In this document: positions 5,244-62,692 of the stretch, one piece after another
How the letters are laid out: every line of letters starts with the position of its first letter
How positions within the stretch are numbered: the stretch's first letter is position 1
Source: Candidatus Bilamarchaeaceae archaeon
GTDB taxonomy: Archaea; Micrarchaeota; Micrarchaeia; Anstonellales; Bilamarchaeaceae
Direction: 5' to 3'
Assembly: GCA_038870635.1 (NCBI GenBank)
Contig: JAVZJR010000001.1
Coordinates: 212,839 to 276,838 of the forward strand
DNA: 64,000 nucleotides
The notes under the pieces: model-generated
Told to the model about the DNA's origin: nothing
What the model saw: only the letters and a program-made list of their open reading frames with translations
Database searches by the model: none
Position numbers and translations under genes: made by a program

Positions 5244-5273
5244 TTTTTAGTTATTCGTTTTTAGGTATTCTTA

Positions 5274-5503
5274 CTGTTTTCTTGGCTTCTTACTGTTTTC
5301 TCTGTATTTCTAATGTTTTCTATGTGCCGTTACTCCGGTTTTCATCGGTGCCGGCAGGGGTTTTTATGTTTTCTCCTGTTTTCTTGGCTTCTTACTGTTT
5401 TCTCTGTATTTCTAATGTTTTCTATGTGCCGTTACTCCGGTTTTCATCGGTGCCGGCAGGGGTTTTTATGTTTTCTCCTGTTTTCTTGGCTTCTTACTGT
5501 TTC
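5274..5503. repeat. 102-bp direct tandem repeat, ~2.25 identical copies
   Basis: Unit starts at 5274, 5376 and 5478 (CTGTTTTCTTGGCTTCTTACTGTTT...). Confidence 0.95.
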
Positions 5504-7513: not shown

Positions 7514-10500
7514 TTAAATTAATTCTGTCTTGTTTTTCATCTCACCCATCTCTAATTCGTCTGGTAGAAGCATGCCTTTGGTTGTTTTAGTCCTCAATGC
7601 AGTATCTAAAAGTGTTTTATAATCTTTTTCATTTCCTTTTTCCATATTCTTAATTATTAGAGGTAGGATAACACTATTTTCAAGTTCTTTTTGATAAACA
7701 TCAATGTTTTTATCTTCTATCAAAATCCTATCAAGTATTTTATTCGTCATATTTACATAGTTATCATACTTTTCAAGTAAATTAACTTTATTTCCAGCAT
7801 TTCTTGCAGGCTCTAATCTTTCATAATCTTTAAACAGAGAAGTTACATTACCAACTTCTACCCGGTATTGCTCAGGAATCTCTGCAAGTGCATCTTCCCT
7901 CACTGTTTTAGCAATATCATTATCTTTTACTTGTGACCAATAATTACTACCGATTTTTTGATTATCTGGTAGCTTATTATAAATATCAAATATATCTTGT
8001 GTTATTGGGTCATTTGGTGATAAACGTCTTTCTTTTCCTTCATCAATCGTGTATACTACTATTTTCTTTTCTTCACCAACCATCTCTTCACTTATTATAT
8101 AAACTTTTTTTGAAGTTGGATCAGTTAAAACATAACTTGTAATTTTTTCATCATCAGCACTAACTTTTGAAAAAATAAATGTGTCAACTCTATTTATTTT
8201 AGTTGATATTTGGACATCTTTTGGATCCTTTCCTATTTTATACTCCACTTCTCCGTCATCTACAATATAGCTTTTAACTCTTTTTCCTTCTTCATCAGGT
8301 ACTACTGTAATTTTAAAGCCCTCATCAGAAGTAAAAGAAATACCCTTATCAGTTTTTTCTGCATTTATAACAGGCGTAACTGTTTTACCATAATAAATTG
8401 CATCTACTTTATCATAGGGGTCCTCTGATCTAAAAGCAAAGTACTTTTTTAAGTTTTCAAGTTGTTCTTTCTCCTCCATAGCAGAAGAAAAAGATGGAGC
8501 ATTCCCATTTCTAAGAAGATCTTTAATATTTTCAATATTTTTATCTAGAGTTTTAACAACATCATTGCCAGTTTTCTCTAACTGTTTTTCTGCAGCATTA
8601 ATTTCTTTTAAAAGACTATTTATATTTTTCTGCATATTTAACTGTTCTTCTGTCAAAGGATGTTTTGCTTCAGCATAAGCAAGAGCTTCTTTTTGAGCAA
8701 TTAAGTACTCTTTTACATTTTTATAACCACCTTCTTGTATTTCCTTAGATAATTGTTCTGCACTTATTCCTAATTTTTTGGCGGTGTAATCAGCAGACAA
8801 AACTTCGGTAAACCTCTCACTAGCTGTGTTATAACTCTCCAGTGCTTTTGACAACTTTTCATCCTTCAAGTCCTTTGTTAGATTTCTAACATTTATTACT
8901 GCAGCTTCATCAATCGCCCGCACATCTTTTTCATCAATATTTTGAGATACGATGGACCTTATTTTTTCCTTTCCCACTTCTATTTCCCCTTTCACCAAAA
9001 CATTACCTATTTGGCGAAAAAAGCCTGCTTCTCTTTTATATTCTGCTAATTTATCGTTATATTTTCCTAATGCATCATTATATGCACCCACTGCAAAATC
9101 GCTTCTTTGGTTGACAACCTCTTCATAAACATTCTTTATTTTATCAAATTCAGCCCCACTTAATTTACCAGCCACACCATACACCACAATATTAGCTCCC
9201 TCTTTAGTTACTAAATATTTTTGATCCCCTATTGTGATAGAAAGATATCCAACAGTAGATATATTTTTCTCTTCAAGGTCCTTACTTAGAATAGATATCG
9301 TTTTGTTAAGTCTCTCATTGTCTTTGTCACCTCTAAAAGAAACTTTAATTTTGCCTTCTTCTTCATAAGTAATACTTCCATCAGAATTAATCGATATGAT
9401 AGTAATTGAACGGTCACCAACTTTAATTGTTTTTCCTTCTAAAGATTCCTCTTTTTTTTGGAGTTCAACAGAAACCTTTCCTTCTTTTGTGTCAAAAGTT
9501 TGTTTTATTTTCTTTTCATATTCTTCCAGGTCGTTTTTAATATCTAAGAGAAATGCTTTTTTGATTTTTATTTCAGCATTGGTAGTTAAACTTAGTTTGA
9601 AATCATTAAATTTTTCATCTACTTTCTTAAAGTCTACTAAACCAAAAGTTATTTTAGAAAATAATGTAAAAATTGGGCTCGCATATTCTTTTTCTTTTTC
9701 TTGAGAACCTAAATTTAGAGCAACACCTCCTGCTCCTCCTCCAACGCCGCCTTCTCTCCTAAAAGGAGAAATAACTACGTGAGCAGATTTCTCTAAAATT
9801 TGAACTCCAGCCTTTGCTGTAAGTTTACCAATGTCTACAAAGGTATCCTTAAGTGACATTTTTTTATCAAACGAAGAACTTATCGCCCCCCCTATATTAC
9901 CCAATCTTGAGATCGGAGAAACTATATTTTTTACTTCATCTTGGAACTTTTCTTTTGCCAACGTTCCATAAGCATCAAAGAATGAAGAACCGGCATCCAT
10001 CCTGGCTTTTATTTCTTTTATTTCATTAACAGCAGTAGCGGTACTTCTTATTGTGAATAAAACAGATGTTATAGTATAACCTGCTCCCCTACCACGACTA
10101 TCATATCTTATATGCTTTCCTACTCTTGCACCTCCAATATCAAAACCCCTGAGTGGATTTCTCCCAGTTAAGGCAAGACTCCCCCCCAGTAGCGCGAATA
10201 TTATCGCCAGAGGTAAGCAAAAAGCAGGCGTAGCTGTAATGTCTTTTTGAGGTTTGCAGTAGGAATAAAACTCAGTTGCTGGAAAAGCATGATAATTATA
10301 AATTATCTCAGTATCATAAGGATTATAAGCACCTTTAGCAAGTGGGATAGAACTAATAGTAAATGGAATATTTGGAAGGTGAACATTTATCCCGTTCAAC
10401 TCAAAACAGCATTTTCTTACTTCAGTGTCATTACAGGAACAAAAAAGAATCTGATAAGTGAAACAATCGTTTTTATATGAAGAGAAGTCGTAAGTTGCTA

Positions 10501-10750
10501 TTCCTTTTAAATCAGTAAATGTTTTTTCAAAAAAATGGTCTGAAGTGTTATACCGATGTATTATTATAGGTGTATTTACTAAGGGCGCATTGTTAGTTGC
10601 ATTATATAAATATATTTTTAGGATATAATTCGACTCATCGGAAACAACAAACATTTTTGTAGGTGTTAGGGTAGCTACTTCTTCACATTTTATACATTCT
10701 TCAGCAATAGAAAAGGAAAGCATCAATAACAAAAAAAATATTTTTCGCAT
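7514..10750 (-). CDS. Large single-pass membrane protein (signal peptide, small Cys-containing outer domain, TM, ~880-aa C-terminal region)
   Basis: MRKIFFLLLMLSFSIA signal; TM CLPLAIIFALLGGSLAL followed by GRNPLRGFD; Gly-rich and coiled-coil segments. Confidence 0.75.
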   Translation of the reverse strand: MRKIFFLLLMLSFSIAEECIKCEEVATLTPTKMFVVSDESNYILKIYLYNATNNAPLVNTPIIIHRYNTSDHFFEKTFTDLKGIATYDFSSYKNDCFTYQILFCSCNDTEVRKCCFELNGINVHLPNIPFTISSIPLAKGAYNPYDTEIIYNYHAFPATEFYSYCKPQKDITATPAFCLPLAIIFALLGGSLALTGRNPLRGFDIGGARVGKHIRYDSRGRGAGYTITSVLFTIRSTATAVNEIKEIKARMDAGSSFFDAYGTLAKEKFQDEVKNIVSPISRLGNIGGAISSSFDKKMSLKDTFVDIGKLTAKAGVQILEKSAHVVISPFRREGGVGGGAGGVALNLGSQEKEKEYASPIFTLFSKITFGLVDFKKVDEKFNDFKLSLTTNAEIKIKKAFLLDIKNDLEEYEKKIKQTFDTKEGKVSVELQKKEESLEGKTIKVGDRSITIISINSDGSITYEEEGKIKVSFRGDKDNERLNKTISILSKDLEEKNISTVGYLSITIGDQKYLVTKEGANIVVYGVAGKLSGAEFDKIKNVYEEVVNQRSDFAVGAYNDALGKYNDKLAEYKREAGFFRQIGNVLVKGEIEVGKEKIRSIVSQNIDEKDVRAIDEAAVINVRNLTKDLKDEKLSKALESYNTASERFTEVLSADYTAKKLGISAEQLSKEIQEGGYKNVKEYLIAQKEALAYAEAKHPLTEEQLNMQKNINSLLKEINAAEKQLEKTGNDVVKTLDKNIENIKDLLRNGNAPSFSSAMEEKEQLENLKKYFAFRSEDPYDKVDAIYYGKTVTPVINAEKTDKGISFTSDEGFKITVVPDEEGKRVKSYIVDDGEVEYKIGKDPKDVQISTKINRVDTFIFSKVSADDEKITSYVLTDPTSKKVYIISEEMVGEEKKIVVYTIDEGKERRLSPNDPITQDIFDIYNKLPDNQKIGSNYWSQVKDNDIAKTVREDALAEIPEQYRVEVGNVTSLFKDYERLEPARNAGNKVNLLEKYDNYVNMTNKILDRILIEDKNIDVYQKELENSVILPLIIKNMEKGNEKDYKTLLDTALRTKTTKGMLLPDELEMGEMKNKTELI

Positions 10751-10800: not shown

Positions 10801-12078
10801 ATGCGGTACCTGGCAGCATTCCTATTAACAATAGCTCTTTCTTTTGCTCAATCATGTTCACCTATAGGCACAGTGACAAATTATTTAACAAATGAGTTTA
10901 TGTCACTTTTCTTTATTACTTTGGTAATTACTGTGATTCTTCTTGCACTTATAAAAAACTTCTCTGGTCTTATAAATATGCCACAACTTGATGCATGGAT
11001 AAAAAACGAATTAAGAGAAGTAATAGTAACTGTAATTCTTTTTGTCATCATTGTTTCATCTTTTGGTGCTTTAGATTTAATTGTAAAAGCTATAACAAAT
11101 GTGGATTGTACAAGAGATGCTGCACTAAAAGCAGTCGATGGAATGGTAGAAAGGTATGATACTGCCTATCAATCTCTAATCAAAGCAATGACAAGACTAA
11201 GATTTATATCTTCCTATTCATCCTATGCATCATTAGGATTTATACTATATACAGGGATGTCAAATGCAAAATATGCAGGAGTTTACCCACTTATTAATTC
11301 GCTCTCAATGGCTGCATCCGGTTTAACTAATGGGGTATTTTTATATATGGCTATAGAAAAACTCCTAAATTTTTTTTATGTAACGATGCCAATGCTAATC
11401 CCTATTTCATTTTCTCTTCGAGCTTTTCCATTAACAAGAAGTATAGGAAATACTCTCATAGCCATTTGTATAGGACTTGTAATATTCTTTCCGCTATCAG
11501 TAATTTTAGTTGCCCAACTCAATAATATTGTAGGAGTACCAACACCCGAGATACCAAAAAATGAATTATCTGATTTGGTTGGTGGAGAACCTGGCTGGTT
11601 GATGAAAGTAGGAATTGCTGTTGCTACATCTGGCTTAGGTGAAGCAAAAGAAGGAGGTTTAGCCTCCTCTCTTCTTTCACCAGTGTGTAAAAATATGGTA
11701 ACGAGATTTGTATTTAATGTAGGTGAATATCCGTTTGGGCTCGTTGTTTGTCTACCTTTTTTAATTGCAATAGTAACAGCTCCATTTTATCCGACTTGTG
11801 TAGAAATAACGGCGAATATAATCTACCCAGCTTTAGCAGCATTAGCTAGTCTTGGTCTCGCAGCGCTTATAATGGTTGTTGATCATTTTACATTAAATTT
11901 TGATCCTGAAAAAGCTTTTAACATAATTTATGTTTTTCTTAGAGATGTCAACATATTAGTCGTTATTTCTTATGTAAATGTATTATTAATCGGATTAATA
12001 ACAATAAGTGGGATTAGATCAATATCAGCAACATTGGGAGGGGAATTATACCTCCCAGGAGTGGAGAAGTTGATATGA
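10801..12078 (+). CDS. Multi-pass membrane protein, paralog 1 of 6 (CedA/VirB6-like, inferred)
   Basis: Signal peptide; LDAWIKNELREV; LRAFPLTRSIGNTLIAICIGLVIFFP; C-terminal IRSISATLGGE. Confidence 0.75.
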   Translation: MRYLAAFLLTIALSFAQSCSPIGTVTNYLTNEFMSLFFITLVITVILLALIKNFSGLINMPQLDAWIKNELREVIVTVILFVIIVSSFGALDLIVKAITNVDCTRDAALKAVDGMVERYDTAYQSLIKAMTRLRFISSYSSYASLGFILYTGMSNAKYAGVYPLINSLSMAASGLTNGVFLYMAIEKLLNFFYVTMPMLIPISFSLRAFPLTRSIGNTLIAICIGLVIFFPLSVILVAQLNNIVGVPTPEIPKNELSDLVGGEPGWLMKVGIAVATSGLGEAKEGGLASSLLSPVCKNMVTRFVFNVGEYPFGLVVCLPFLIAIVTAPFYPTCVEITANIIYPALAALASLGLAALIMVVDHFTLNFDPEKAFNIIYVFLRDVNILVVISYVNVLLIGLITISGIRSISATLGGELYLPGVEKLI

Positions 12079-13046
12079 AAAAGACACTATTTACCCTTCT
12101 TTTAATTTCAGTGTTGTTTGCGCAATGCGAAAAAGATGTCTTAAATATAGTTTTATCAGAACAAGGAACGCTTATCTCGTTAGTAATAATAATAAGCGTC
12201 ATAGGCATCGCCTTGTTATATACTTTTGGTAAATTTGCTGAGAAACCAGAATATATTGTACTGGCAAAAGACGAGCTTTATCATTTATTTTTTTCAGCGG
12301 TCTTGTTAATCGCGTTTGGCGGGATTATTTTTTTCGGTTGTTTATTATCTTCTACTATTATAGATTTTGGAAAAGACAATCTTCAAATAAAACATCCTTG
12401 CTTGGCACAATTAAATGCAAACAATGTTGCATTGTGTAGCCTTATTTCTATTGAAAAAGAAATAGATAGCATAGTATATGCGCTTACAAAACAACAATTA
12501 ACTTACTTACAAGATGCAGGATGGGCGTATAGTGCGGGTGATATTATAAAAGGAGAAACAAAAACAACTTCCATGGAAGCATATAAACGAGTTTACGCAA
12601 GTGAAATAGACATTTTACTCACTACTTATCTTTTCCCTGCAAGATTAGCCATCACAATGCAAAAAACTGCAATAACACTAATAAATGATTCTATAATTCA
12701 ATGGATTTTACCAATCGCATTTCTTTTCAGATTTTTCCCACCTTTCCGCTCAGCAGGGAATATTCTTTTAGGTATATGCTTAGCACTTTATGTACTATTT
12801 CCTTTCTTTTTAGTTTTTAATTTCCTCATGTATTATTCAGTCTTTGATGATTGCCATAAATATGCCAACATATTCGAAGATAAACCGTTAGATAAAGAAA
12901 TTGGTTCCACTGTGTGTACATCACCAATATCCATGTGGAACGTAGCGCGTTTTATTCCAATTGCCTTCTTCCTTCCTAACCTTGCAATCGCGCTCACAAT
13001 AACTTTCATTTTTGCAATTGATAGGGCTTTAAGGGTGATTGGCTGA
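12075..13046 (+). CDS. Multi-pass membrane protein, paralog 2 of 6
   Basis: ATGA overlap; LAKDELYHL; FRFFPPFRSAGNILLGICLALYVLFP. Confidence 0.75.
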   Translation: MKKTLFTLLLISVLFAQCEKDVLNIVLSEQGTLISLVIIISVIGIALLYTFGKFAEKPEYIVLAKDELYHLFFSAVLLIAFGGIIFFGCLLSSTIIDFGKDNLQIKHPCLAQLNANNVALCSLISIEKEIDSIVYALTKQQLTYLQDAGWAYSAGDIIKGETKTTSMEAYKRVYASEIDILLTTYLFPARLAITMQKTAITLINDSIIQWILPIAFLFRFFPPFRSAGNILLGICLALYVLFPFFLVFNFLMYYSVFDDCHKYANIFEDKPLDKEIGSTVCTSPISMWNVARFIPIAFFLPNLAIALTITFIFAIDRALRVIG

Positions 13047-15136
13047 AAAAAATAATTTTGTTTTTGTTTATTTTTTTAATTGCGTTGGTAGGTGCACAGA
13101 ATAGTTTACAGTGTAATGGAAAAGATACAGAGGATCCATGTGCGTACCTTTCACCTCAATTATGCCAAGCGCTTAAATATTTTGAAGATTGGAAAGTAGC
13201 GGCACTTTTGGCATTAATAATCTCCACCCTAATAGTAGCCATAGCTTATATGATGGGTGCTGGCTTTGAGATGCCTGATTTAAAAGCATGGGCGACCAAT
13301 GAAATTTCACAACTAATAGCTACAGCTATAATAATTGCTGCGGTTATAGGCGTATTTACACTCCTCGATGGTATTGTTTTATTAATAGTCCAAGAGAGCA
13401 GAGTACCTAATTTAAGCTGCGCTATCGGTGAGAACTGCCTTAATAAAACTGCTTCTTTTTATCTTGACGATTACATATCAACAGCTAAAGAAGGTGCTTT
13501 GGAAGCATACAAAAAAGTAATTGAGGAAATTCAAACTACAACTACAAGGTACAATATCTATTGCAGTCAAGTAATTACACCTATACCATGCTTGCAAATC
13601 GGGAGCTCTATACCACGTGAAGGAGTAGGGAATGCGATTTTAAATAGTGAAAGAGAAACAATAGTATATGAGTATTACCAGGGGCTTTTGGCCTCGATGG
13701 AGGCTCAAAAATTCTTTGTTTCTAAAGTTGCGTTTGGGGTAGGACCGCTACTTTTGGCTATGGGTGTATTAGGTCGTGCGTTTTTCTTCACACGTCGTTT
13801 AGGCGGCCTCTTAATTGCAGTAGCGATAGGGATAATGTTTGTTTTTCCATTGATGTATATATTTGACTGGCTAACAATGCAGTTAACACTTTATGGAGAT
13901 TTGCCTTTTTCTGGATTTAGTTCTAATTGTCCTCTTGAATGCCAAAAAACAATTCCTGTTGCGTACATGGATACGACAGGTAAATTCGGCGGCGCCATCA
14001 CAGTTCAATTCAATAATACTGGTGAACTGATGAACCTCATATTTGATGAAATTAATAGAACAAAAAAATGTAGTGAAAAGCAAAATATGAAAGAAGCAAG
14101 TGAAATTGCAGCAAAACTAACAAGTGGTGAAATAGAAAAATATATTTTACCATATAGTAAGAAAACCATCGTATCTTGTGAAGGCGAAGCAAGCAAAGCA
14201 GTTGTAAAATTTACAAGTAAAAAAATGTGCATAGCAGAAGGGGAATCAGAAGATGAAATAGACTATTCCCTAAGCAAAAAAAAGGAAGACTGTCCAGAAG
14301 AAGATGAAGAAAAAAACTATACATGTCCATTGCAGTGTAGGGTGTTACCATACCCCTATTGGATACCAAAATGTGCAGAATATGGCACTCAGTTAGCTTG
14401 TAGCAAGCTTACTGAAAAATGCAAAATAATTAGATTTGTAGAGAAAGTTGATACTTTTCAGAACAATAGTTGCCCCGCAGAGTGTAAAATAATTCCACCA
14501 TTAAAAAATGACTGTAGTTCAGCAGCTATTATGACTTCTTTTTGTCCAGCCAGAATGGAAAGCCCATGTACAGTAGATGCTTGTCTTGACTCTCGTTTTG
14601 ATTGCCGTTCAAAGTATAGAACAAAAGGAACGCCATTTAAGGATTGGTTTGAGAAGCTAACATCAACATCTAAGGAAAATCCAGAAGTTGCTCTCATAGC
14701 ATTAGAGAAGTGTAGTTTTGCTACCACATGTGCAGGTTTCGATTTTAAAGCAGATAACACAAATAATTACAAAAACACGTTGGATATAGCTAAAAAAAGT
14801 TGTATTTATATATACCCAGATCCTAATAACCCATCGTGCAGTGGTTGTGTATTCACAGAAAAAGCATATCTTTACGATCCGGTAATACGACCAGATGATG
14901 AATGCAAAGATTTGTGCTCTTCTAAACCAACAGGAAAAAAACAGACAGGAGCAAATGCACCTTTGCTCGTAGAAGGTAACGTAGGACCAACTATTCTTAC
15001 TGATGTAGCCAAACTACTAGTACCTGTGTACCTATTACCTTTATTTAACATACTTGTAACTGTAATGTTTATTCGTTCCTTCTCAAGATTCTTAGGCGGT
15101 GATATAGAGATACCTGGATTGGCGAAGGTGTTGTAA
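13043..15136 (+). CDS. Multi-pass membrane protein, paralog 3 of 6, with large Cys-rich insertion; probable CTG start
   Basis: LKAWATNEISQL; GRAFFFTRRLGGLLIAVAIGIMFVFP; C-terminal IRSFSRFLGGD; track start is TTG 13058, CTG 13043 follows a GGTGA RBS. Confidence 0.75.
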   Translation: MKKIILFLFIFLIALVGAQNSLQCNGKDTEDPCAYLSPQLCQALKYFEDWKVAALLALIISTLIVAIAYMMGAGFEMPDLKAWATNEISQLIATAIIIAAVIGVFTLLDGIVLLIVQESRVPNLSCAIGENCLNKTASFYLDDYISTAKEGALEAYKKVIEEIQTTTTRYNIYCSQVITPIPCLQIGSSIPREGVGNAILNSERETIVYEYYQGLLASMEAQKFFVSKVAFGVGPLLLAMGVLGRAFFFTRRLGGLLIAVAIGIMFVFPLMYIFDWLTMQLTLYGDLPFSGFSSNCPLECQKTIPVAYMDTTGKFGGAITVQFNNTGELMNLIFDEINRTKKCSEKQNMKEASEIAAKLTSGEIEKYILPYSKKTIVSCEGEASKAVVKFTSKKMCIAEGESEDEIDYSLSKKKEDCPEEDEEKNYTCPLQCRVLPYPYWIPKCAEYGTQLACSKLTEKCKIIRFVEKVDTFQNNSCPAECKIIPPLKNDCSSAAIMTSFCPARMESPCTVDACLDSRFDCRSKYRTKGTPFKDWFEKLTSTSKENPEVALIALEKCSFATTCAGFDFKADNTNNYKNTLDIAKKSCIYIYPDPNNPSCSGCVFTEKAYLYDPVIRPDDECKDLCSSKPTGKKQTGANAPLLVEGNVGPTILTDVAKLLVPVYLLPLFNILVTVMFIRSFSRFLGGDIEIPGLAKVL

Positions 15137-16098
15137 TGAAAAAAATAATTATTTTGTTACTTTTGATTTTACTCGCGTATGCGGCAAACCCTAGTCAAAA
15201 ATTCCAAAAACCACTTCTCATAGAAACGGGTGCGACTGCAATAATTTTCTCTACATTAATATTAACACTTCTATATATGATAGGGCATGGGTTCAACATA
15301 CAAACACTTGTAATGAGCAGTAAAGACGAATTATACCACCTTATAATATCAATCATTTTGCTTGGAAGTTTTGTTTTAATCTCTCTATCTCTAGATAGTT
15401 TTATTGGCGGTAACGGCCTGTGGTGGGATGCTAGTAGCAAAATAGAGAAGGTTTCCTTAGGATTTAGAGTGATATTAAGTGGCATCCATTCTTTTGAAAA
15501 TGTAGCGATAGAAGGAACAGAAACATTAAGTTGCCAGTTTTTCAGTGCATCGTTAACAATGTCTCCTTGTGGTGGCTACTCCGCTCTCACACCGCCAGCA
15601 AACACAGCCAACTCCATACTTAGCATGGTTTTAGTTTCTTATTATGTAATACAAAATTTGTTATTGTTAGGTGTAGGCCCTGGTATAAATATTATATTCC
15701 CTCTTGGAATATTTTTTTACTCTTTTAAGTTCACAAGACCAGCTGGCTCGGTTTTAATTGCAATAGCATTTTCTTTATATGTTTTATTACCATTAATGAT
15801 AATAGTTGTAGAAGGAATTTATGACAAATATACACAAAACATAACAATTTCCAGTAAAGCACCTGAAGCGAAGGTAATAGGATGTACTGCAGACGATAGA
15901 ATTTCAACAAGTGAAAACAATGCTTTGGAGACTTATAAAAATATGAAAAAATTTTTAGAGTATCACATGGAAGTAGTGCTAATAAAAGGTTTAATCTTTC
16001 CAATAGTCTATATACTTTCATTAGCTGCTGGAATAAGAGGAATCGCGGCTGTTGCAGGTATTGAGGTGGACGTATCTGCGATATCGAGGTTGATGTGA
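15136..16098 (+). CDS. Multi-pass membrane protein, paralog 4 of 6
   Basis: TAATG overlap; SSKDELYHL; FYSFKFTRPAGSVLIAIAFSLYVLLP; C-terminal IRGIAAVAGIE. Confidence 0.75.
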   Translation: MKKIIILLLLILLAYAANPSQKFQKPLLIETGATAIIFSTLILTLLYMIGHGFNIQTLVMSSKDELYHLIISIILLGSFVLISLSLDSFIGGNGLWWDASSKIEKVSLGFRVILSGIHSFENVAIEGTETLSCQFFSASLTMSPCGGYSALTPPANTANSILSMVLVSYYVIQNLLLLGVGPGINIIFPLGIFFYSFKFTRPAGSVLIAIAFSLYVLLPLMIIVVEGIYDKYTQNITISSKAPEAKVIGCTADDRISTSENNALETYKNMKKFLEYHMEVVLIKGLIFPIVYILSLAAGIRGIAAVAGIEVDVSAISRLM

Positions 16099-17141
16099 TG
16101 GTTGGAGTTTGTGAAGGTTTTCTTGCTGGCGGCGGTATAATATACAACTCCATCCTTCCACTTGCAGGTTTTGCTGCGCTTATTACAATAATTGCTATAG
16201 TAATTGCGTATTATATAGGAACATTTATAGATAACCCAAAAGTAACAGTTTGGGCAAAAACAGAGATTGTACAGGTTTTTATTTCAGTATTGGCGGTTAT
16301 TATAATAATCGCAGGCATGCAATCTTTTTGTGCAATAGATTCTGGTGCTATAAGAGAAATTGTTGGGAGTAAAAACAACATAAAAGGAAACATCTTTGAT
16401 GAAGCTGAAAGTTATTTAGTTAATACTACTTCGTATGGCCACTATGCTATGGGTGTAACAAGATACTATCTTTCAGCATATGCTATTTTTATATATAGAT
16501 ATACTTTCTCCTGTGATTTATGGGGACTAGGTTGTCTTTTTGGTGGAAGCGGAACTTCGTACTCCAGTTTAGCTAATTATGGTGGTAAATATGGTTCATT
16601 AAATATGCTTTTTGGATCGACAGTCCTATATTTTCTAACTTCTGCAAATATGTTGTTTATTTTATTATTCACTTACAAAGGATTTATTCTTTTTTTCTTA
16701 CCTCTTGCCATCATCATTCGTTCTCTTCCATATTTACGATCGCTCGGGTCGGTTTTAATAGCTATATGCATTTCTTTTTTTCTCGTCTATCCGCTTGTCC
16801 TTTCAGTATTTTCTGTTGCAACGGACAACCTGTTTTACAAGCCGATTGTTTTAAAAGAAGAAAAATTCGAATCAAAGAGCGGCTCAAGTGAATTATTTTA
16901 TGGCTCGATACTAGGAGCTCTTGGTACCTCTGTTTATACAAATGACAACGTCCTGAAAGAAGATTTATTTGTTAATGGAAAGGATGACTACATTGAAGTA
17001 TTAAAGATAATAGCTACTGCTTTCGTTATATCTTTTGTTCTTCCTTCCTTAGCACTTGCGATAACACTTGCAAGCATTAGATATTTCGGAAGACTATATG
17101 GTGAGGATGTTGATTTAAGTAGATTATCACAATTGGTGTAA
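16098..17141 (+). CDS. Multi-pass membrane protein, paralog 5 of 6
   Basis: TGATG overlap; VWAKTEIVQV; IRSLPYLRSLGSVLIAICISFFLVYP; C-terminal IRYFGRLYGED. Confidence 0.75.
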   Translation: MVGVCEGFLAGGGIIYNSILPLAGFAALITIIAIVIAYYIGTFIDNPKVTVWAKTEIVQVFISVLAVIIIIAGMQSFCAIDSGAIREIVGSKNNIKGNIFDEAESYLVNTTSYGHYAMGVTRYYLSAYAIFIYRYTFSCDLWGLGCLFGGSGTSYSSLANYGGKYGSLNMLFGSTVLYFLTSANMLFILLFTYKGFILFFLPLAIIIRSLPYLRSLGSVLIAICISFFLVYPLVLSVFSVATDNLFYKPIVLKEEKFESKSGSSELFYGSILGALGTSVYTNDNVLKEDLFVNGKDDYIEVLKIIATAFVISFVLPSLALAITLASIRYFGRLYGEDVDLSRLSQLV

Positions 17142-17143
17142 TT

Positions 17144-18130
17144 ATGGCTGCACAATTACCTGGTATTTGGGAGGGTGCGTGGTTGCCTTATAGTATTGCG
17201 GCAATCTTTATCGCACTTTTAATACAAGGCCTTATATATGCCATAGCCAAAGCTTTTAATCTCACTGAGTTAGAGAGAGGTACAAAATCAGAAATAATGC
17301 AGGTATTGGCTACGTTCTTTTTAGCTGTTTTTCTGGTAATAATAGTCGGGAGTCTATCTGATTATGTTAATAGTCAAATTTATGGAACAATAATGTGTGG
17401 TGGAAAAGAGGTAACAGTAGAAAACACTGCTAGTGCCCTTTATGTTATGCAATGTAAAGTAATAGAAAAAGCAAGAGCACTGGAAAGTATTCATCTTGCT
17501 ATAAGAGAAGAGGCAAACGACGCGTATTACACATTTTACTCAAGCTTTAATGTTATGGGGGTGCCTGTTTTCTCAGGTCAATATATAAGCGGTTTATATA
17601 AAACAATAGAAAATTATAGATATAAAAACAATCTAACAACAACTCTTCTGATAGCCCTAAATGCTCTAATAACATTTATTGCTTATATCGGAGCATCAAT
17701 GCTTACTTTCTTTTTACCTTTAGGTGTTCTTCTTCGAGCTTTTTATTTTACAAGAGGAATAGGTAGTCTTTTTATATCACTAGCAATAGGATTTTACTTT
17801 ATATTTCCATACGTATTTATAATTACTGACCCAGGATTTGTTAAATTACCTCCTCCTGAAAAACCATCACCTACACTTTCTAATGAATTTTGTTATCAAA
17901 CATTTTCTTCTGTAATTTCTATTGTAAATTATAATACAAAACAAGGCGAATGGAAACAACCAGCTGGCTCTGATTACTTTACCACAAATGACCTTGCAAA
18001 AATATATGCTTCATTGATATTACATCCATTAGCATCCCTATTTTTAACCATCATATTTGTAAGATATTTAATGTATCTTTTTGGAGAGGAATCATACGAT
18101 TTGTTGCGTATGACGGCGAGGTTGGTATAA
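17144..18130 (+). CDS. Multi-pass membrane protein, paralog 6 of 6
   Basis: GTKSEIMQV; LRAFYFTRGIGSLFISLAIGFYFIFP; C-terminal VRYLMYLFGEE. Confidence 0.75.
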   Translation: MAAQLPGIWEGAWLPYSIAAIFIALLIQGLIYAIAKAFNLTELERGTKSEIMQVLATFFLAVFLVIIVGSLSDYVNSQIYGTIMCGGKEVTVENTASALYVMQCKVIEKARALESIHLAIREEANDAYYTFYSSFNVMGVPVFSGQYISGLYKTIENYRYKNNLTTTLLIALNALITFIAYIGASMLTFFLPLGVLLRAFYFTRGIGSLFISLAIGFYFIFPYVFIITDPGFVKLPPPEKPSPTLSNEFCYQTFSSVISIVNYNTKQGEWKQPAGSDYFTTNDLAKIYASLILHPLASLFLTIIFVRYLMYLFGEESYDLLRMTARLV

Positions 18131-21100
18131 TGAAGAGAGCGATTGTTCTTATGTTTGTTTTATTTTTCATTTTTGGCTGTACAGTAGAAAAACCATTAGA
18201 CAAACCCACAGAAAAAATAAGCTGTTGTAATAGAACAGTAGCAGAAAATGAGAATAGGTGTGAGTTAGTTAACCCCCCCGGACACTTCAGTTATCAACCG
18301 GGACCTTGTGACTTAGAAAAAAACACATGCAACATTACATTACTAAGTGTCCAAAAAGGCGGAACTTCAGGATCTTTGGGTGGAAGCGGCGGAATTGGAA
18401 CAACACCTATAGGCGGCCAAACAAAAAAAGAAACAATAGGACTTGAAAAAAATATAATAGAGGTTCCGATATGTAGTGGAGTTACTACGGACACTTGCGT
18501 ACAATCAAATTGTATGGCGATGGTTTGTGGTGATTTTCTTTACAGACCAAAACCACTACAATCAATGCCTACTGAAGAAGAAATAGAAGCAGGTGCAGCA
18601 CTGCCACTTACACAGAGCGAGGAAGAAGGTTTCTCGCTTTACAAAGCAGATTGCAAGTTTTTCAAGATGGATGAAAACCTTTCGAAATTACTTGAAAGAA
18701 GTGGTGCAGTTGTAAATAGCTTTAGATTTGGCATCGGAAGCGAACGCCCGCACTTTGAAGATTTTGAAAGATTTAGATATTACTTTCCACCGAGTGATAA
18801 ATTTTGTAGTATAAATACTAATGGAAATATAGATAGGTACTTAAATTATCTAGAGGTATGCAAAATAGTAGGCGCTGCGAACTCAATTCTTTTATGCAAC
18901 CAATATAAAAACGAGTTAAACAAAACGGATCCTCTGTCCTCTATTTCAAAATATCAATGTGTACCTTACACCGCGAGTCTAAAGGAATCAAATAAAATGA
19001 ATTTTAGAAAATTATATCCTTTCTTATACACAAATAAGGAATCAAATGATAAACTAGAACCAAACAGTTATAAATTAAAAGAGAGGGGGGAGATAGACAA
19101 GGAATACTATGCAAGAGCTTTAACGGCGGAGTATAGTGACTTAATATTTAAACAAAATAAAACTGCACCTTTTGAGTGTGAAATAGATGAATGTTTATCT
19201 GGCTTTTGTAATAAAAAAGATTATAAACGATCAGTTATATTAAAAAAAGATGGTACAAAGATACCTGTTGATTGCCATTACGGAACAATAAATGAAAGAA
19301 GGGTAGTTGTATGTGCTTCACATACTGCAGACCCCGAGTTCAGATGGGACAGCTCATTAGACGATGTTAATGTTTATCCAAATTATCAAAAAATACCAGT
19401 TTATGTTTTACAGTCACACATATTAAAAGAGAGGGGTTCATGCTTTGCGGCGGCGGGTGACGAACTTTCAAAAATAAAGAAGAAGTCTTCGACATTTTTT
19501 ACAGAGGCCATAAATGAAAATTGGGAAACACTTACATTTAAGGAACTTGGTGATGCAAGAAATGGAAAATGTAAAGAAAAAATAAACCAATATTTAAAAG
19601 AAGATACATATTATGTTTTTATGTCTAATCCAGTTCATTTATTGAAAGATATAGCAACGAGAACAAACGGAAAGGAAACTGATAATCCTTCTTATTATTG
19701 TCAAGGTGAGATCTTAGATTGCACACCACGTTATGAATTTGAAAATATTTTATATTTACCCCAAAATGAAATTTATGAAATAGAAGTAATTCCAAGTGAT
19801 TTTAATAGTGCTATGGTTTCACCTAATGAAGATGATAAATGTCCTAGTGGTTATATAAAAGGTAAGAATAATATGTGTTATGCAACTTCATTAGAAAAAG
19901 GAAAAAAATATCTACCAGCAGCAACAATTTATTTTTTTAATAACCTAGATTTAGCAAAAGGTGACAACAAAAAAATAATCGGATATGGAATTGGTAAAGC
20001 AGAAAACAGTGATTTAATAAAAAAATGTAATATGAAAGAGGGCAAAGACTATGAAAATAAAGATATAGCTATAGCTAATCCTTCAGAAATCTATATACAA
20101 AAAGAAGATAACACAGGTAGCTATCAACTTGGTTTGCAGCTAGGGATGGATACTCTCAGAGAGATAATGCCTTATTTTAATTACGATAACGACAAATATT
20201 ATTTCGACTTATACAAAATAAAAGCAACAAGCATACCGTGGGTATTGGCATATATGTCATGTAAGGATGATAAAGCTAATAATTGTGAACCGATTACACT
20301 TACCAAACCGCAACAGAGAATACTTATAAGAAATAATATATTCGCATTACCACTTACTGATAATAACAAAGTGGTACTAAATTCTGAAGATTTAGCTAGA
20401 GAGATTAGTTCTCCAACAGTCATAAATTATGTTCTAGCATCACGTTATTTTTATATTATTTATAGCTTAGGAGATTGTGAAATGGAAGAAGGAAGCGAAC
20501 TCCCGAAATTAGAAGAATATGGATGGTGCGAACCTTGTACATATGCAACAATGGCGTATAGCGGTGTTCAACCCCCACCATCTACAGAAGAAGAATCAAC
20601 AAAACTTCATTATCAAAATTTACAAATTACAAATTATCTGAAGAATGGAATATTTCCTATTTTAGATTTCAGAAAAGCAGCTGAATATGTTGATCTAAGC
20701 CAATGTACATCAGATATAAATGGGCAATTACAATGTCCATCCAATGTAAAAGAACCATGGATAAGTGAACTAAAGCTATTAGTAAAGACAGATACAAATG
20801 AAGATTTAGGACCAATTATAATCCTTGTTGGTAGCAGCAGAACAAAATACATGGTTGATCCTTGGGTGGCAAAAGAACAAACAAATAAAGTAAAAGAAAT
20901 ATGTAAAAAATGTTTGGCAGCAGTTCCGTTTTATGCTTCAGCGAGCTCTTACGCTACAGAAATATATGCAGATAATGAAGTAGTAATTACAAATTATGTT
21001 GATAGAGATGTAACCAATGAAATGGGTGAGTTATTTAAAAAAGCTAATAATATTGATGTAGCAGTAATAGAGTTTCCTATTGCAGATGTTATGATAGATT

Positions 21101-22653
21101 ATGCAAAAGACAGCGTCTGGTGGAACTCAAGAACAGCAAAAGAAAAAGCAGATATTGTTGTTGAAAGAATGTATAATTATGCATGGCAAATAAATTATGA
21201 AGCAAGAAAAGCAGGAAAACAACAGCCAGTACCAGTAGTGATATTATTTAACCTAGAAACAAATGAAGAAAAAGGCTGGCCAGTCTTCAACAGTAAAGAC
21301 GATACTACAGCACAAGAGAACAAAAGAAGATTTTATGCAGATTTTTTTGCTAATATATACTTATCAAAAGATAAATTAAGAAAAGCAGGAGTTATTGGCC
21401 TTGTTTATACCCCATTGAGCGCAAAAGGACAAACACCACCAGAATATCCTGCTAATATAGGAATAGTTAATCTTCCTACTAGTTTTGGTTCAAAATTCTG
21501 TTCTTTCCAAGAAGGAACATATGATTTTGTCAGTATTGAATTATTAAACAAAATAAATAGAATAACGCAGCCTAAAGAAAAATGTGATATGTTTGCAAAA
21601 GAACAAACCGTGCAATTCCAACAAATATGCCGCCCAGATGCAACAGGATGGGAGGGAGATATATTCAACTGCACTCTTACTTGTTATAATCAAACGGATA
21701 GTTGTTCCCTTATGTGCAAGCTGCAAAAATGCACTTCAATGCCACCAGATGCAGAACATTCAGATATATACTTATCTTGTGAACCCCCAACAACAAATGG
21801 TTTCATTAATTGTATGTTTAAAAATGGAAGAAAAATAGTAGGAGAAAAAGACTACAGTGAAACTGCCCTGTGTCAAATAAAAAGCCCATCTTTAAATCCT
21901 CAAATACAACAAAAAGAATGCAGCATAAAATGTGATAATGAAAATGGTGGTTGTAATCTAAACTGCGTAATTCAGATATTCCCAGAGTACTACTGGTGGA
22001 AAGATTTAGCTAAGTGTTTTATAGATACTTCATCTATAACAAAAAGCTGCGGACAAAAACTCAGCCCAAGCGGTGCGATTTATTGCCAACAATGTAGCTC
22101 AAATGAGTATTGCGATGAATCCTCAATGATATGTGATGACGGTACGCAATGTGTTGCCCCACCTGGAACAACCGGTCCTTATAAATGTCCGAAAGGATTA
22201 GTGAGTGAAAAATGCCAATTATGCAGTGAGAAAACAGGCACAGTCTCTTGTTTAATGAGAAGATATACCGAACCGAAGGCTATTGATCGTTTTGCTATAG
22301 GGGCCGGACTAAATTATGATAGTTATTTCAAAGAAATAAAGTATTCTTCTTTAACAGATGCAGATATGGATATAATAGCAAGATTGCCAAAAACAGATAA
22401 ATGCTGCCTCTTAGATGATGAAAATAAAAAATATACATACCTACTAACAGAAATGAACGCAATAAGTAGCACTCCAGTGATATTTGCTACTGGTCAACCA
22501 TCACCACAAGCAAGCTTATTACAAGATTGTGGTTTTATAGACTCAACGATAATTAATGCGCAAGGTGGGTTAAAGATATGTGGGATAACAATGACGCCAG
22601 ATGAACCATTAGCATGTAAAAAAACTGGCGAGTGGGTAACTTATGATAAGTGA
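18130..22653 (+). CDS. Giant Cys-rich surface lipoprotein-type protein (1507 aa)
   Basis: TAATG overlap; MKRAIVLMFVLFFIFGC signal/lipobox; about 67 Cys by hand count; no further TM segment. Confidence 0.75.
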   Translation: MKRAIVLMFVLFFIFGCTVEKPLDKPTEKISCCNRTVAENENRCELVNPPGHFSYQPGPCDLEKNTCNITLLSVQKGGTSGSLGGSGGIGTTPIGGQTKKETIGLEKNIIEVPICSGVTTDTCVQSNCMAMVCGDFLYRPKPLQSMPTEEEIEAGAALPLTQSEEEGFSLYKADCKFFKMDENLSKLLERSGAVVNSFRFGIGSERPHFEDFERFRYYFPPSDKFCSINTNGNIDRYLNYLEVCKIVGAANSILLCNQYKNELNKTDPLSSISKYQCVPYTASLKESNKMNFRKLYPFLYTNKESNDKLEPNSYKLKERGEIDKEYYARALTAEYSDLIFKQNKTAPFECEIDECLSGFCNKKDYKRSVILKKDGTKIPVDCHYGTINERRVVVCASHTADPEFRWDSSLDDVNVYPNYQKIPVYVLQSHILKERGSCFAAAGDELSKIKKKSSTFFTEAINENWETLTFKELGDARNGKCKEKINQYLKEDTYYVFMSNPVHLLKDIATRTNGKETDNPSYYCQGEILDCTPRYEFENILYLPQNEIYEIEVIPSDFNSAMVSPNEDDKCPSGYIKGKNNMCYATSLEKGKKYLPAATIYFFNNLDLAKGDNKKIIGYGIGKAENSDLIKKCNMKEGKDYENKDIAIANPSEIYIQKEDNTGSYQLGLQLGMDTLREIMPYFNYDNDKYYFDLYKIKATSIPWVLAYMSCKDDKANNCEPITLTKPQQRILIRNNIFALPLTDNNKVVLNSEDLAREISSPTVINYVLASRYFYIIYSLGDCEMEEGSELPKLEEYGWCEPCTYATMAYSGVQPPPSTEEESTKLHYQNLQITNYLKNGIFPILDFRKAAEYVDLSQCTSDINGQLQCPSNVKEPWISELKLLVKTDTNEDLGPIIILVGSSRTKYMVDPWVAKEQTNKVKEICKKCLAAVPFYASASSYATEIYADNEVVITNYVDRDVTNEMGELFKKANNIDVAVIEFPIADVMIDYAKDSVWWNSRTAKEKADIVVERMYNYAWQINYEARKAGKQQPVPVVILFNLETNEEKGWPVFNSKDDTTAQENKRRFYADFFANIYLSKDKLRKAGVIGLVYTPLSAKGQTPPEYPANIGIVNLPTSFGSKFCSFQEGTYDFVSIELLNKINRITQPKEKCDMFAKEQTVQFQQICRPDATGWEGDIFNCTLTCYNQTDSCSLMCKLQKCTSMPPDAEHSDIYLSCEPPTTNGFINCMFKNGRKIVGEKDYSETALCQIKSPSLNPQIQQKECSIKCDNENGGCNLNCVIQIFPEYYWWKDLAKCFIDTSSITKSCGQKLSPSGAIYCQQCSSNEYCDESSMICDDGTQCVAPPGTTGPYKCPKGLVSEKCQLCSEKTGTVSCLMRRYTEPKAIDRFAIGAGLNYDSYFKEIKYSSLTDADMDIIARLPKTDKCCLLDDENKKYTYLLTEMNAISSTPVIFATGQPSPQASLLQDCGFIDSTIINAQGGLKICGITMTPDEPLACKKTGEWVTYDK

Positions 22654-44029: not shown

Positions 44030-45670
44030 TTAAATCCTCCCTTCCAACACTCTAGTAAAAGATGCTATATAATTATCAGGAATCTTCAACCTACGCATTG
44101 CCTTTTGCACAATAATTACCTCTTCTTTTCCAAAAGAGCGGGATAGTATTAGCAAAACAAAATATATTACCGATGATAAAAGAAATAAAAGACCAAAAAA
44201 TATAAGTTTCACAAATTTAGTTAGAATTTCTGTATCTAAAAAACCTAAGTGAGCCATTACAATAGAGAGTGGAAGAGAGGAGATATATTCGATTATGTTC
44301 TGCCGTGTGATATACAAAATAAGAAAAGCAACCAAACCTGCAAAAATAGGGGGTAGTAATTCCAATGGGAAAGAAAAGGCAAAAAGTCTCTTTGAATAAT
44401 AAAATGCCAAGATAGTCATGAGCAAAAATGAGAAAAATGTTGCTATGGCAGCACCATCCATTTCCCACAATGGGATAAAGAGAAAGTTAAGGATTATATT
44501 AAGTATAGCACAGCCCACTGCAATCTTAAGTTCTATATCCAGCCTTCGCATAGCAGCTATTACTTTCATTGGAAGAAGAGATAGTGAAAATATAGCGAAA
44601 GATAACAGATAGACAATAAGAACATTATCGCCGCTTACATAACTTTCTCCATAAAAAACTCTCAAAAAGAATGATGAAAAAGATAAAAGCAAAATAAGAA
44701 AAGGCATTCCTATAATGATCGACCACTTTATAGCAACTGTGGTAATTTTTCTTATTTCGTCTAATTTTTCTTTACCAAAAAGCTCAGAAACCATAGGCAA
44801 AAATATAGTAATTATGGCTGAAAAAGGCAGAAGAACAAGGCCTGCAAATGTTGTAACAACAGAATATATACCAACTTTCTCTAAAGCATTTTCTTTTATA
44901 AGAACACCGAGCATAAATCGGTCTGTTGAAGATGCGATAACGTAGAGAGCCGCTGTAAGCGATAGAATAAGGCCAAATGAGAAAACTTCAAAAATAAAAG
45001 AGCGGCCTGTAACTGATTTATCTTCTTCATATTTTCCAAAATTCCTAATATCTTTAAGCGTAAAATAGGCATAGCCAATTATTAAAGGTATAAAAGAAAT
45101 AAGGTAAGCAAGGCTTAGAGAAACTGCATTAAAAGCTATAATAAACCCAAAAATAATTGTGAATATGATTTTTATTATACCTTGGAAACTGTTAACTAAT
45201 TGATAATCTCTTATGATCTTTCTTCCAACTAAAAAACCACCTAATAAAGCTGAAAGTTCGCTAACAAATGGAAAAAAGGCGAGAACCTGTAATGCTGGCG
45301 TAAGTTCTGGCTTTCCTAATAAAGAAGAAATATAAGGTGCTAAAAATAAGAGAATAAAAGAAGCTGCAATCGAGATAAAAAATCCAAGAATAAAAAGTAC
45401 TTTCAAGAGATAAACTACCCTGGCTTTTTGTCCTTTACTATAAAGGTATGGGACATACGTGGGTAATGATTGAGAAAAACCAAGATCGGTAAAGATTACA
45501 ATAAAACCTACTATAGACAAAACAAAATAAAAGATGCCAATTTCTTCTGTGCTAAATAACCTGGCCACAACTATTAAATAAATAAAACTAAAAAACTTTA
45601 AGAGCACTTGAGCTGCGAAAGTCCATACCGTACCTTTTGCCAAAGTTGACGAGTCTATCGTAGGTTCCAT
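44030..45670 (-). CDS. Oligosaccharide flippase (Wzx/MOP family)
   Basis: Multi-TM; ARLFS..E.G, DLGF, TDRFML, LNFLFIP...GAAIAT. Confidence 0.9.
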   Translation of the reverse strand: MEPTIDSSTLAKGTVWTFAAQVLLKFFSFIYLIVVARLFSTEEIGIFYFVLSIVGFIVIFTDLGFSQSLPTYVPYLYSKGQKARVVYLLKVLFILGFFISIAASFILLFLAPYISSLLGKPELTPALQVLAFFPFVSELSALLGGFLVGRKIIRDYQLVNSFQGIIKIIFTIIFGFIIAFNAVSLSLAYLISFIPLIIGYAYFTLKDIRNFGKYEEDKSVTGRSFIFEVFSFGLILSLTAALYVIASSTDRFMLGVLIKENALEKVGIYSVVTTFAGLVLLPFSAIITIFLPMVSELFGKEKLDEIRKITTVAIKWSIIIGMPFLILLLSFSSFFLRVFYGESYVSGDNVLIVYLLSFAIFSLSLLPMKVIAAMRRLDIELKIAVGCAILNIILNFLFIPLWEMDGAAIATFFSFLLMTILAFYYSKRLFAFSFPLELLPPIFAGLVAFLILYITRQNIIEYISSLPLSIVMAHLGFLDTEILTKFVKLIFFGLLFLLSSVIYFVLLILSRSFGKEEVIIVQKAMRRLKIPDNYIASFTRVLEGRI

Positions 45671-45719
45671 TCATGCACCAGCAAATAGTACAGTAAAATA
45701 TAATAAAAATATATTGAAA

Positions 45720-46271
45720 TTATTGTGGTATTAATTCTATTTTATCAAAATAAGCACTATAAACACTGCTATAAACATTCGGAGCGCGCACCACTACTTG
45801 AATATATGATGTATTGTTATGAATAGAAATATTGGTTAGTAAAAATTTCGACCAGTTAGATTGAGGGGTAAAAAATGTATAATAATAAGACAAAACTGAC
45901 CTATTAGAGTCCAGGAAGTAAACATACATTGCATAACTGCCATTGTTGCCGTAATTATTTTTTGCGTAAAGAGATAAATCTACAGTAGAATAATTCCCTT
46001 TTGAAAAATAAACTATTTGCTCAAAACCTTTGTTAAGTTGAAATATTGGCTTACTAACAAAAAGCGAGTAATTACCATCATAAGATTGATTGTTTACTCT
46101 TTCTACATAATTTGTTTTACCCCAGATACTGGTGTTTATTGTTGTATCAAAAGGTGAAGAAACTGTTAAAAATGAATTTGTTTCAAAACTTGGATTAGAC
46201 AATAAATTGATAGAAAACAAAATATTGAACAAAAGTAAATTTGTCAGCAAAAGAAAAAATATTTTTTTCAT
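45720..46271 (-). CDS. Secreted protein with carbohydrate-binding-module-like beta-sandwich
   Basis: Signal peptide; NLLSNPSFE, DGNYSL, W.KF, YFDKIEL pattern typical of CBM4/9-like folds. Confidence 0.6.
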   Translation of the reverse strand: MKKIFFLLLTNLLLFNILFSINLLSNPSFETNSFLTVSSPFDTTINTSIWGKTNYVERVNNQSYDGNYSLFVSKPIFQLNKGFEQIVYFSKGNYSTVDLSLYAKNNYGNNGSYAMYVYFLDSNRSVLSYYYTFFTPQSNWSKFLLTNISIHNNTSYIQVVVRAPNVYSSVYSAYFDKIELIPQ

Positions 46272-46317
46272 AAATAACACCTCTGTATACTCTTTTCTCC
46301 GTATACTATTTTAAAAG

Positions 46318-48081: not shown

Positions 48082-48111
48082 AAAACCACTATTTATCTTA
48101 TTTAAATTACC

Positions 48112-49335
48112 TTATTTAAAATTTGAATTAATAATTTTAGAAAATATTTTTATAGCTTCTTTTGCATTTTCTGGCTTTATTGGATAAATTAATCTTTTAG
48201 CTGTATTTCGACCAATAAATAAACTTTTCAATGATTGTAAAAAGCGGATTGGAATGAAAATAATAGCTTTAACTAAACCAAAGAAAATATTAAAGCGAGA
48301 AGTCTTTAATATTATTTCATCAGTATATATAGTTGCTTTTTTTGATATAAAAAGCGATATGAATAAAAACGGAGTTAGAAGAAAACGCAAAATAGAAGAA
48401 TAAGGGTAAAAACCTTTTTCTTTAACTCTTTTTATTTCTAATATTTTGTTATTAATAAGGGCAGGATAAAAAAACTGAAAAAAAGGGGCTTTCTCAAGAG
48501 TTTTTGATAGTTCTCTATCTGAAAAAACATCAGCAAAGAATGAGTAAAACACATACCAAAGAATAAATTTTGCTATAGCAGATAAATCAGAAAAACTATG
48601 TAAAATAAAAGATTTCATAATTCCTGCTATATAAGGATAAAACTTTCTTTTTTCAGCCATTTTGTGGAATATTGTGTAACCAGCACGTGGATGTACAACA
48701 TAAGCATTTTTGTTAATATAGATTAAGTTCGCTTTTCCCAGTCTGATAAGTAATTCAAAATCTTCACCCCCTCTCCACGTATATGGAAGGTGAAAACCAA
48801 CAACCCCAAAAGCCTTCCGTGGATAGAATGCGAAGCCATTTACATTATAACTAAGTGCTTTATCTGGATTTGCGTCTTCTAAAGAAATACAAACAGGAAA
48901 AACAACTTTGTTTTCCTTTTTTACGATTTTTCTACATTCTAGGAAGGATCTTTTAGAATCTATAAAAACATTTATATCTGCTACAACTATTATTTCATAA
49001 CCTAAAGAATAGCCTAGATAAGTAGCTGCAAAAAAAGCGCCAGAGGTTCCTAATGGAATTTTTTCTTTTATTTGAAGAGCATTCAAATTTAGTGGAATAA
49101 AATCTAATCCATGTTTGTAAACAAAAATTACATCTGCCACTTCATTTATTTCAGTATCTTTCAAATATTTTACAAAATTTTTAAGTTCTTCTATATCTCC
49201 GACGGGGGCTACAATAACCGTATCTTTCATATTTTTTATATTAAGAGAAAAAGAAGAGAGTAAAATATCCAAACCACTATCTAAAAGAATTTGACTTACT
49301 TTTTTCTCTGTTAAAAAATCATGATTATTCTTCAT
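48112..49335 (-). CDS. Divergent GT2-like glycosyltransferase
   Basis: LGTSGAF, IIVVAD, GGEDFEL..R, VVHP; glycan-locus context. Confidence 0.6.
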   Translation of the reverse strand: MKNNHDFLTEKKVSQILLDSGLDILLSSFSLNIKNMKDTVIVAPVGDIEELKNFVKYLKDTEINEVADVIFVYKHGLDFIPLNLNALQIKEKIPLGTSGAFFAATYLGYSLGYEIIVVADINVFIDSKRSFLECRKIVKKENKVVFPVCISLEDANPDKALSYNVNGFAFYPRKAFGVVGFHLPYTWRGGEDFELLIRLGKANLIYINKNAYVVHPRAGYTIFHKMAEKRKFYPYIAGIMKSFILHSFSDLSAIAKFILWYVFYSFFADVFSDRELSKTLEKAPFFQFFYPALINNKILEIKRVKEKGFYPYSSILRFLLTPFLFISLFISKKATIYTDEIILKTSRFNIFFGLVKAIIFIPIRFLQSLKSLFIGRNTAKRLIYPIKPENAKEAIKIFSKIINSNFK

Positions 49336-49358
49336 GAAAACACCTGCAAATAAAGCTG

Positions 49359-51025: not shown

Positions 51026-51083
51026 AGAATAATTACATCAGCATATTTTTTAATTTTAACCTAATAAAAAATGAAAGGATTGG

Positions 51084-52175: not shown

Positions 52176-52190
52176 ATATAAGGTGAGCAT

Positions 52191-52889: not shown

Positions 52890-52902
52890 AAAATAGGGCG
52901 AA

Positions 52903-54943: not shown

Positions 54944-54952
54944 AAAAACCAC

Positions 54953-55954: not shown

Positions 55955-56013
55955 AAGAACACCAACAAAATGTATTATATAATATTATAAAAGTTTTCTT
56001 AAAAAAATAAAAC

Positions 56014-58880: not shown

Positions 58881-58964
58881 TTTTACACCTTTACATACAA
58901 AACTTACTAAATACCATCCACTTGTATATTTTTAAGCAATATTGATTACTTACATTATGATTTT

Positions 58965-62672: not shown

Positions 62673-62692
62673 ATAGTGTACCTATTTAAAAC

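Follow-up and report, generated by a model that had tools for sequence, protein, structure and literature searches.

The stretch of DNA analyzed here (the window) comprises 64,000 nucleotides of a contig from a Candidatus Bilamarchaeaceae archaeon, and its subject is a cassette of six consecutive same-strand genes, g1 to g6, flanked by g0 and g7 (Table 1). The six encode strongly diverged paralogous membrane proteins, which we propose to be subunits of a machine resembling type IV secretion systems (T4SS). The open reading frames (ORFs) of the initial annotation were confirmed at 10801-18130, as were their junctions: ATGA (-4), CTGA (-4), TAATG (-1), TGATG (-1) and a 2-nt gap (+2). An additional TAATG overlap joins g6 to g7. 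The CTGA overlap of g2 and g3 exists only if g3 starts at CTG; its first common start codon is TTG at 13058, 11 nt past the g2 stop, from which g3 would be 692 amino acids (aa) long. The start of g0 lies 50 nt upstream of g1. None of the 10 genes of the locus that were scanned, g0 and g7 included, reached a Pfam/NCBIfam cut-off, and a sigma-70 promoter scan, the model being unsuited to archaea, gave no excess over shuffles. The source genome consists of 859 kb in 8 contigs and is 89.6% complete; the named homologs of the family are Micrarchaeota.

Table 1. Genes of the cassette and its immediate neighbors (window positions).
Gene	Position	Strand	Description
g0	7514..10750	-	1078 aa, divergent from g1
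g1	10801..12078	+	VirB6-like paralog, position 1, 425 aa
g2	12075..13046	+	VirB6-like paralog, position 2, 323 aa; lacks C-terminal LG(G/E)(D/E) tail
g3	13043..15136	+	VirB6-like paralog, position 3, 697 aa from CTG; Cys-rich insert
g4	15136..16098	+	VirB6-like paralog, position 4, 320 aa
g5	16098..17141	+	VirB6-like paralog, position 5, 347 aa
g6	17144..18130	+	VirB6-like paralog, position 6, 328 aa
g7	18130..22653	+	1507 aa, coupled to g6, 67 Cys, candidate exported protein

Paralogy of the six genes, proposed initially from shared motifs, is well supported. Comparison with phmmer gave at least 10 bits in 26 of the 30 ordered pairs as against 3 of 900 locally shuffled control pairs (883 reported, best control 11.8 bits), the weakest real pair being g1-g4 with 0-2.7 bits. 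All three motifs are present across g1-g6, with their E, R, G and P invariant in the six proteins; the first R of the hairpin motif is Y in g4. The truncation reported for the C-terminal motif of the second paralog was also found. Variable Cys-containing loops, which had been ascribed to the whole set, are only partly so: cysteines number 6, 7, 32, 3, 5 and 3 from g1 to g6, but the large Cys-rich insert (about 370 aa) occurs only in g3. The outer loops as such vary widely.

The cluster is conserved in related genomes. In 10 loci found by the N-terminus of g3, g0 and the paralogs keep their order with one-to-one orthology, and all six together with g7 are present in nine, the tenth contig stopping after g3. 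In one locus from a metagenome-assembled genome (L013:14101-15122) the g6 ortholog is split into two ORFs, by a frameshift or a sequencing error. Each of the 14 cassettes counted has exactly six members. With whole lineages held out, position-specific profiles assigned 79 of 84 proteins correctly, the five misassigned ones belonging to positions 1, 4 and 5, and the LG(G/E)(D/E) tail is absent from all 12 position-2 proteins inspected. A quick LG+G4 tree, built from 78 of 90 rows with two close cassettes left out and carrying long-branch warnings, recovered positions 2, 3, 5 and 6 each as one group (support 86-96), left positions 1 and 4 unresolved and grouped the single-copy genes apart; position changes 6 times on it and lineage 29 times. 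This grouping by position indicates that the six subfamilies predate the split of these families and that the cassette was duplicated whole. Judged from sequence, each of the six is apparently its own ancient subfamily.

These regularities bear on the question whether the paralogs work together. Each could instead build its own homo-oligomeric (pentameric) stalk or mix freely with the others, so that different hosts or substrates would be served by different channels. For the five virB6 genes of Rickettsia, the account consulted gives a proposal of multiple uptake channels (PMC2653234), the outer loops of the paralogs differ, and single-copy modules occur in G145, G016, G038, G108 and G133. 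A free repertoire would, however, be expected to differ in number, whereas here six genes keep a fixed order and fixed subfamilies, overlap one another and always include a tail-less position 2, and we consider such independent stalks improbable. That the six share one hetero-oligomer, as gene overlap, fixed number and fixed identity suggest, seems to us fairly probable.

The relation to VirB6 comes from predicted structure. An AlphaFold2 model of g6 (predicted local distance difference test 79, predicted template modelling score 0.71) shows a helical hairpin at the N-terminus, a long helical stalk, the RxFxxTR turn and two more long helices. The two top-ranking structural matches, each covering almost all of g6 with moderate Z, are DotA of the Legionella Dot/Icm system and TrwI/VirB6 of plasmid R388, at 6-10% identity. 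Foldseek with the same model gave no match at E<=0.001, the paralogs have no TrbL Pfam match, and no family in a Pfam/NCBIfam scan of 85 homologs matched more than one of them at E<=0.01. Searches of PDB sequences with four family profiles returned nothing meaningful, and the N-terminal family profile matched no PDB chain, that of CedA1 included. In one Atlas cluster (score 0.90), 23% of the members carry PF27251 (CedA1), which is a lead only for a link to CedA. The channel N-terminus showed a tentative similarity to the pilins described below by hhalign (probability 72.5 and 63, pairwise E about 3e-5 to 7e-5), and the pilin profile matches 7 of 90 channel-family members at E<=0.01. It could be argued from the blank sequence searches that the family is unrelated to VirB6 and shares with it a common helical arrangement, its linkage to VirB4 and pilins marking another envelope complex. 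However, two T4SS stalk proteins of unrelated sequence take the first two ranks, and the VirB4 and VirB2 assignments stem from separate searches; we regard this explanation as very improbable and a VirB6-like T4SS origin of the family as highly probable.

The initial annotation saw neither a VirB4 ATPase nor a VirB2 pilin, which is correct for genes adjoining the cassette, but both are present elsewhere in the same genome. A profile of the six paralogs finds seven further members, among them a second six-paralog run with the same positional subfamilies on contig C2 (25898-33459; L001:9899-17460), whose position-2 protein carries two extra N-terminal pilin-like repeats, and a single-copy paralog at C1:199673 (L003:9674-10693). 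Directly after the second cassette lies a gene (L001:8470-9882) which we take to be RuBisCO-like. Three pilin-like genes are found at C1:207057, 207780 and 292585, all outside the window, the first two about 5 kb before its start. The pilin matches TrwL at E 6.5e-4, and at E<=0.01 T4SS_pilin is matched in 7 of 14 and TrbC in 6 of 14 cases. The tandem pair before the window (L003:17058-18209) is 95% identical with the differences near the C-terminus, which may reflect recent duplication, tip variation or an assembly effect. Two operons, C1:385647-388057 and C1:176018-178234, consist of a gene for a protein with two transmembrane helices (2-TM) followed by an ATPase gene. Both ATPases score above the AAA_10 and DUF87 cut-offs and one also above that of P-loop_TraG; their plasmid matches include VirB4-like conjugal ATPases at 23-29% identity, and the adjoining 2-TM protein has a predicted fold like the N-terminal part of VirB4. 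VirB4 thus appears to be divided between two proteins, the 2-TM one corresponding to its N-terminal domain and the other being the ATPase. The VirB4-family ATPase and the VirB2-type pilin, two of the parts by which the T4SS superfamily is recognized, are both encoded in this genome, outside the window. The single-copy paralog lies about 21 kb from the second 2-TM/ATPase operon (L004:5316-8235), and the two adjoin in G108 and others. Contig C6 encodes a third ATPase, HerA-like, which was ruled out as a core part, being present in only 28 of 151 genomes; this patchy HerA/TrwB-like gene (L006:8621-10402) has a second copy in two pieces at C1:337877-339620. A 770-aa protein at L004:15409-17721 is presumably a P-loop protein next to an SRP54-like gene.

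Across 151 Micrarchaeota genomes, a set that includes the source genome (G000) and one unpublished genome (G029) and in which related genomes are not independent, the paralog family is present in 135 (at most about 12 candidates were scored per genome and copy numbers are lower bounds) and a VirB4-like ATPase in 134. Both occur in 134 genomes and neither in 16; the one discordant genome is 89% complete. The pilin query matches 125 genomes, some of these matches possibly being pilin-like repeats of channel proteins, and none in families without channel and ATPase. A library of representatives at 50% identity gave 3180 family matches at E<=0.001. Among the sequences listed by word-based homolog searches with two broader profiles, those with a name were all Micrarchaeota apart from one labelled Marsarchaeota, and the others had no name, a result that cannot show absence from other phyla. 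Family members of Ca. Mancarchaeum acidiphilum are on record as unnamed multipass membrane proteins.

In six genomes from three other families, picked for strong matches and near-complete assemblies (G103, G006, G078, G090, G016 and G038), the components form one large operon: the six paralogs come first, then two 2-TM genes, the ATPase gene, a short segment similar to the C-terminus of the ATPase and three more conserved genes. The latter, unannotated and 167, 246 and 862 aa long (L005:12055-15882), come after the ATPase gene in all the large operons inspected and are likely further parts of the machine. Pilin genes are directly upstream in four of the six; in G016 a single gene intervenes, and in G038 the distance is about 4.5 kb. 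A giant Cys-rich gene follows the operon in three or four. In the G006 ATPase (L019:6485-9628), about 535 aa are inserted just past the Walker A lysine; the insert ends in HN, and we take it to resemble an intein. In the source lineage the parts of the ancestral operon are dispersed over the chromosome and the cassette is duplicated; in G093, likewise, two cassettes lie apart from each other and from a pilin-ATPase operon. The five genomes with single-copy modules listed above hold a minimal module of one channel gene, one 2-TM gene and an ATPase; in three of them a weak match to the pilin lies immediately upstream. The VirB6-like, T4SS/Ced-type channel that had been suggested for a DPANN symbiont is supported by three separate lines, the predicted fold of g6, the split VirB4 and the VirB2-type pilins, whose genes stand in one operon in other families; its further element, one six-subunit pore, is suggested by fixed number and position.

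What the machine might transport is constrained by its composition. For the coupling protein (PF10412, the one family searched, in the incomplete source genome) only three sub-threshold P-loop matches were obtained, two of them the VirB4-like ATPases; neither relaxases (two families, PF13814 and PF03432) nor ComEC were found in the genome. This fits a domesticated machine. Import or exchange of DNA between cells of the same species for repair or recombination, as in Ced and Ted and with no host contact, would be in accordance with this, with the same three components in the accounts of Ced/Ted (PMC9905601, PMC11868833) and with the occurrence of a CedA paralog, CedE, in Saccharolobus. Yet G016, G038 and the source genome also hold a one-channel module with its own ATPase, in a Ted-like layout, that could fill the DNA role, and the six-gene cassette is accompanied by giant exported proteins; we think DNA exchange of this kind improbable as its role. 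The coexistence of the minimal module in three genomes suggests a task for the six-gene machine beyond DNA exchange of the Ced type. A platform for pilus assembly and anchoring that serves attachment with no transport appears more improbable still. VirB6 was proposed to be a pilin-recruiting platform in the description available (PMC12857230), and the pilin-like repeats of the second cassette and the missing coupling protein would agree with it; but Ced and Ted, as described, move DNA without a separate coupling protein, and six specialized subunits would seem elaborate for mere anchoring.

The partner genes g0 and g7 were examined with the cassette. The protein g0 has a signal peptide, a small Cys-containing outer domain, one transmembrane helix, a long variable tail and a conserved motif GRNP..GF..GG.R.G. 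Its ortholog is divergent from g1 in all 10 related loci, and its profile also matches the divergent gene preceding cassette G093b (E 5e-7). The ortholog of g7 directly follows g6 in nine of these loci, the tenth contig ending earlier; the protein has an N-terminal hydrophobic segment and may be a component of the tip or an adhesin on the surface. Its profile did not match the giant Cys-rich proteins encoded next to the cassettes of other families.

From these results we propose, with a probability of about 60%, that most Micrarchaeota have a chromosomally domesticated T4SS-like machine with six stalk/channel subunits of the VirB6/DotA/CedA fold. The six proteins would form a membrane-anchored stalk/channel with one copy of each, either as a six-membered ring or as a set of five subunits with tails to which the tail-less position-2 protein is added; five plus one is as plausible as a hexamer because the solved VirB6 and DotA stalks are pentamers. 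The split VirB4 would power it from the cytoplasm, VirB2-type pilins would be recruited by the pilin-like N-terminal hairpin and cap or extend the channel, and the variable outer loops and g7 would face a partner cell. We consider contact-dependent transfer to or from another cell its most likely role, with the host of the symbiont a more probable partner than a plasmid recipient; the chances of a host-directed role are about even. Three points weigh against our proposal: the known VirB6/DotA stalks are, in the source cited (PMC12857230), homopentamers; sequence-level matches and Foldseek were blank, with moderate Z; and the lack of the machine in 16 genomes makes it less likely that feeding depends on it. 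A bolder version, which we put forward only tentatively and think rather unlikely, is that six non-interchangeable VirB6 subunits form the stalk of a host-docking and feeding organelle with pilins and giant Cys-rich tip proteins, the minimal module performing Ced-like DNA exchange. Such an organelle could correspond to the unassigned 21-nm barrel that Microcaldus ARM-1 has in its envelope at the docking site of host nanotubes (PMC11329633), a tie that is speculation.

A mobile-element origin of the cassette was considered and is disfavored: the flanking genes are housekeeping genes, the G+C content (34.8%) is close to that of the large contigs (about 35%), and no close relatives of g6 were found in plasmids nor of the VirB4-like ATPase in viral contigs. 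Elsewhere in the window, a large cluster of sugar-nucleotide and glycosyltransferase genes (44030-63622) probably serves surface glycosylation, and a 102-bp tandem unit at 5257-5502 (2.4 copies, 97% matches) belongs to a dispersed intergenic repeat found in 13 places on 5 contigs.

How DPANN archaea make contact with their hosts and live off them is still an open question; no genes have been assigned to the envelope structures seen at the interface. The present analysis offers a defined parts list in 134 of 151 Micrarchaeota genomes, findable in existing co-cultures, and a testable candidate for how host-dependent archaea exchange material with other cells. In the Creative Commons-licensed PMC and bioRxiv papers searched, the six-gene system of Micrarchaeota is apparently undescribed, a novelty that is tempered by the systems compared below. 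Should all six proteins turn out to sit in one stalk, a component so far known only as a homopentamer would exist in hetero-oligomeric form, with parallels in the virB6 array of Rickettsia and in the domesticated T4SS of Patescibacteria.

Counterparts of VirB5, VirB7-11 and VirD4 were not identified here, VirD4 being the only one searched for. Ced of Sulfolobales (CedA, CedE, CedA1, CedA2, CedB, CedD) and Ted of Thermoproteales (TedA, TedB, TedC) are DNA importers that, like the Micrarchaeota system, are chromosomal and combine a VirB6-like channel, a VirB2-like pilin and a VirB4-like ATPase; in Ced and Ted, and tentatively in Micrarchaeota, the channel N-terminus resembles the pilin, and in all of them the VirB4 N-terminal domain lies on more than one protein and no relaxase was found (two families searched here). 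Ced and Ted have one or two channel genes, whereas here there are six fixed subfamilies, twice in the genome, besides the single-copy module, and large variable outer loops with a giant exported partner are found in Micrarchaeota, unlike Ced/Ted; the likeness is one of layout. In Nanohaloarchaea, another DPANN phylum, a giant immunoglobulin-repeat protein fused to a VirB4/TraG ATPase was proposed to be a T4SS-like host-interaction machine; it differs by its fusion architecture, and the part of the account at hand describes neither a VirB6 array nor a VirB2 pilin (PMC10266531). The MPF-FATA-related T4SS of Patescibacteria is, in the descriptions consulted, chromosomal, widespread in small-genome epibionts, mostly without relaxase, equipped with arrays of VirB2-like pilins and, in one species, indispensable for growth as an epibiont (PMC12102498, PMC12857230). 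In that system it is the pilin that is multiplied, and a coupling protein is described, while in Micrarchaeota it is the channel subunit that is multiplied and no coupling protein was found. The rvh T4SS of Rickettsia, as far as the source describes it, differs in belonging to bacterial diderms and in having a full VirB/D4 set, recognizable TrbL domains and four to five copies. It also has, beside virB3-virB4, the tandem, strongly diverged and vertically inherited genes virB6a-e, in a reduced, host-dependent genome over which the system is scattered in islets (PMC2653234), and the likeness of the six-gene cassette to this array looks like a parallel.
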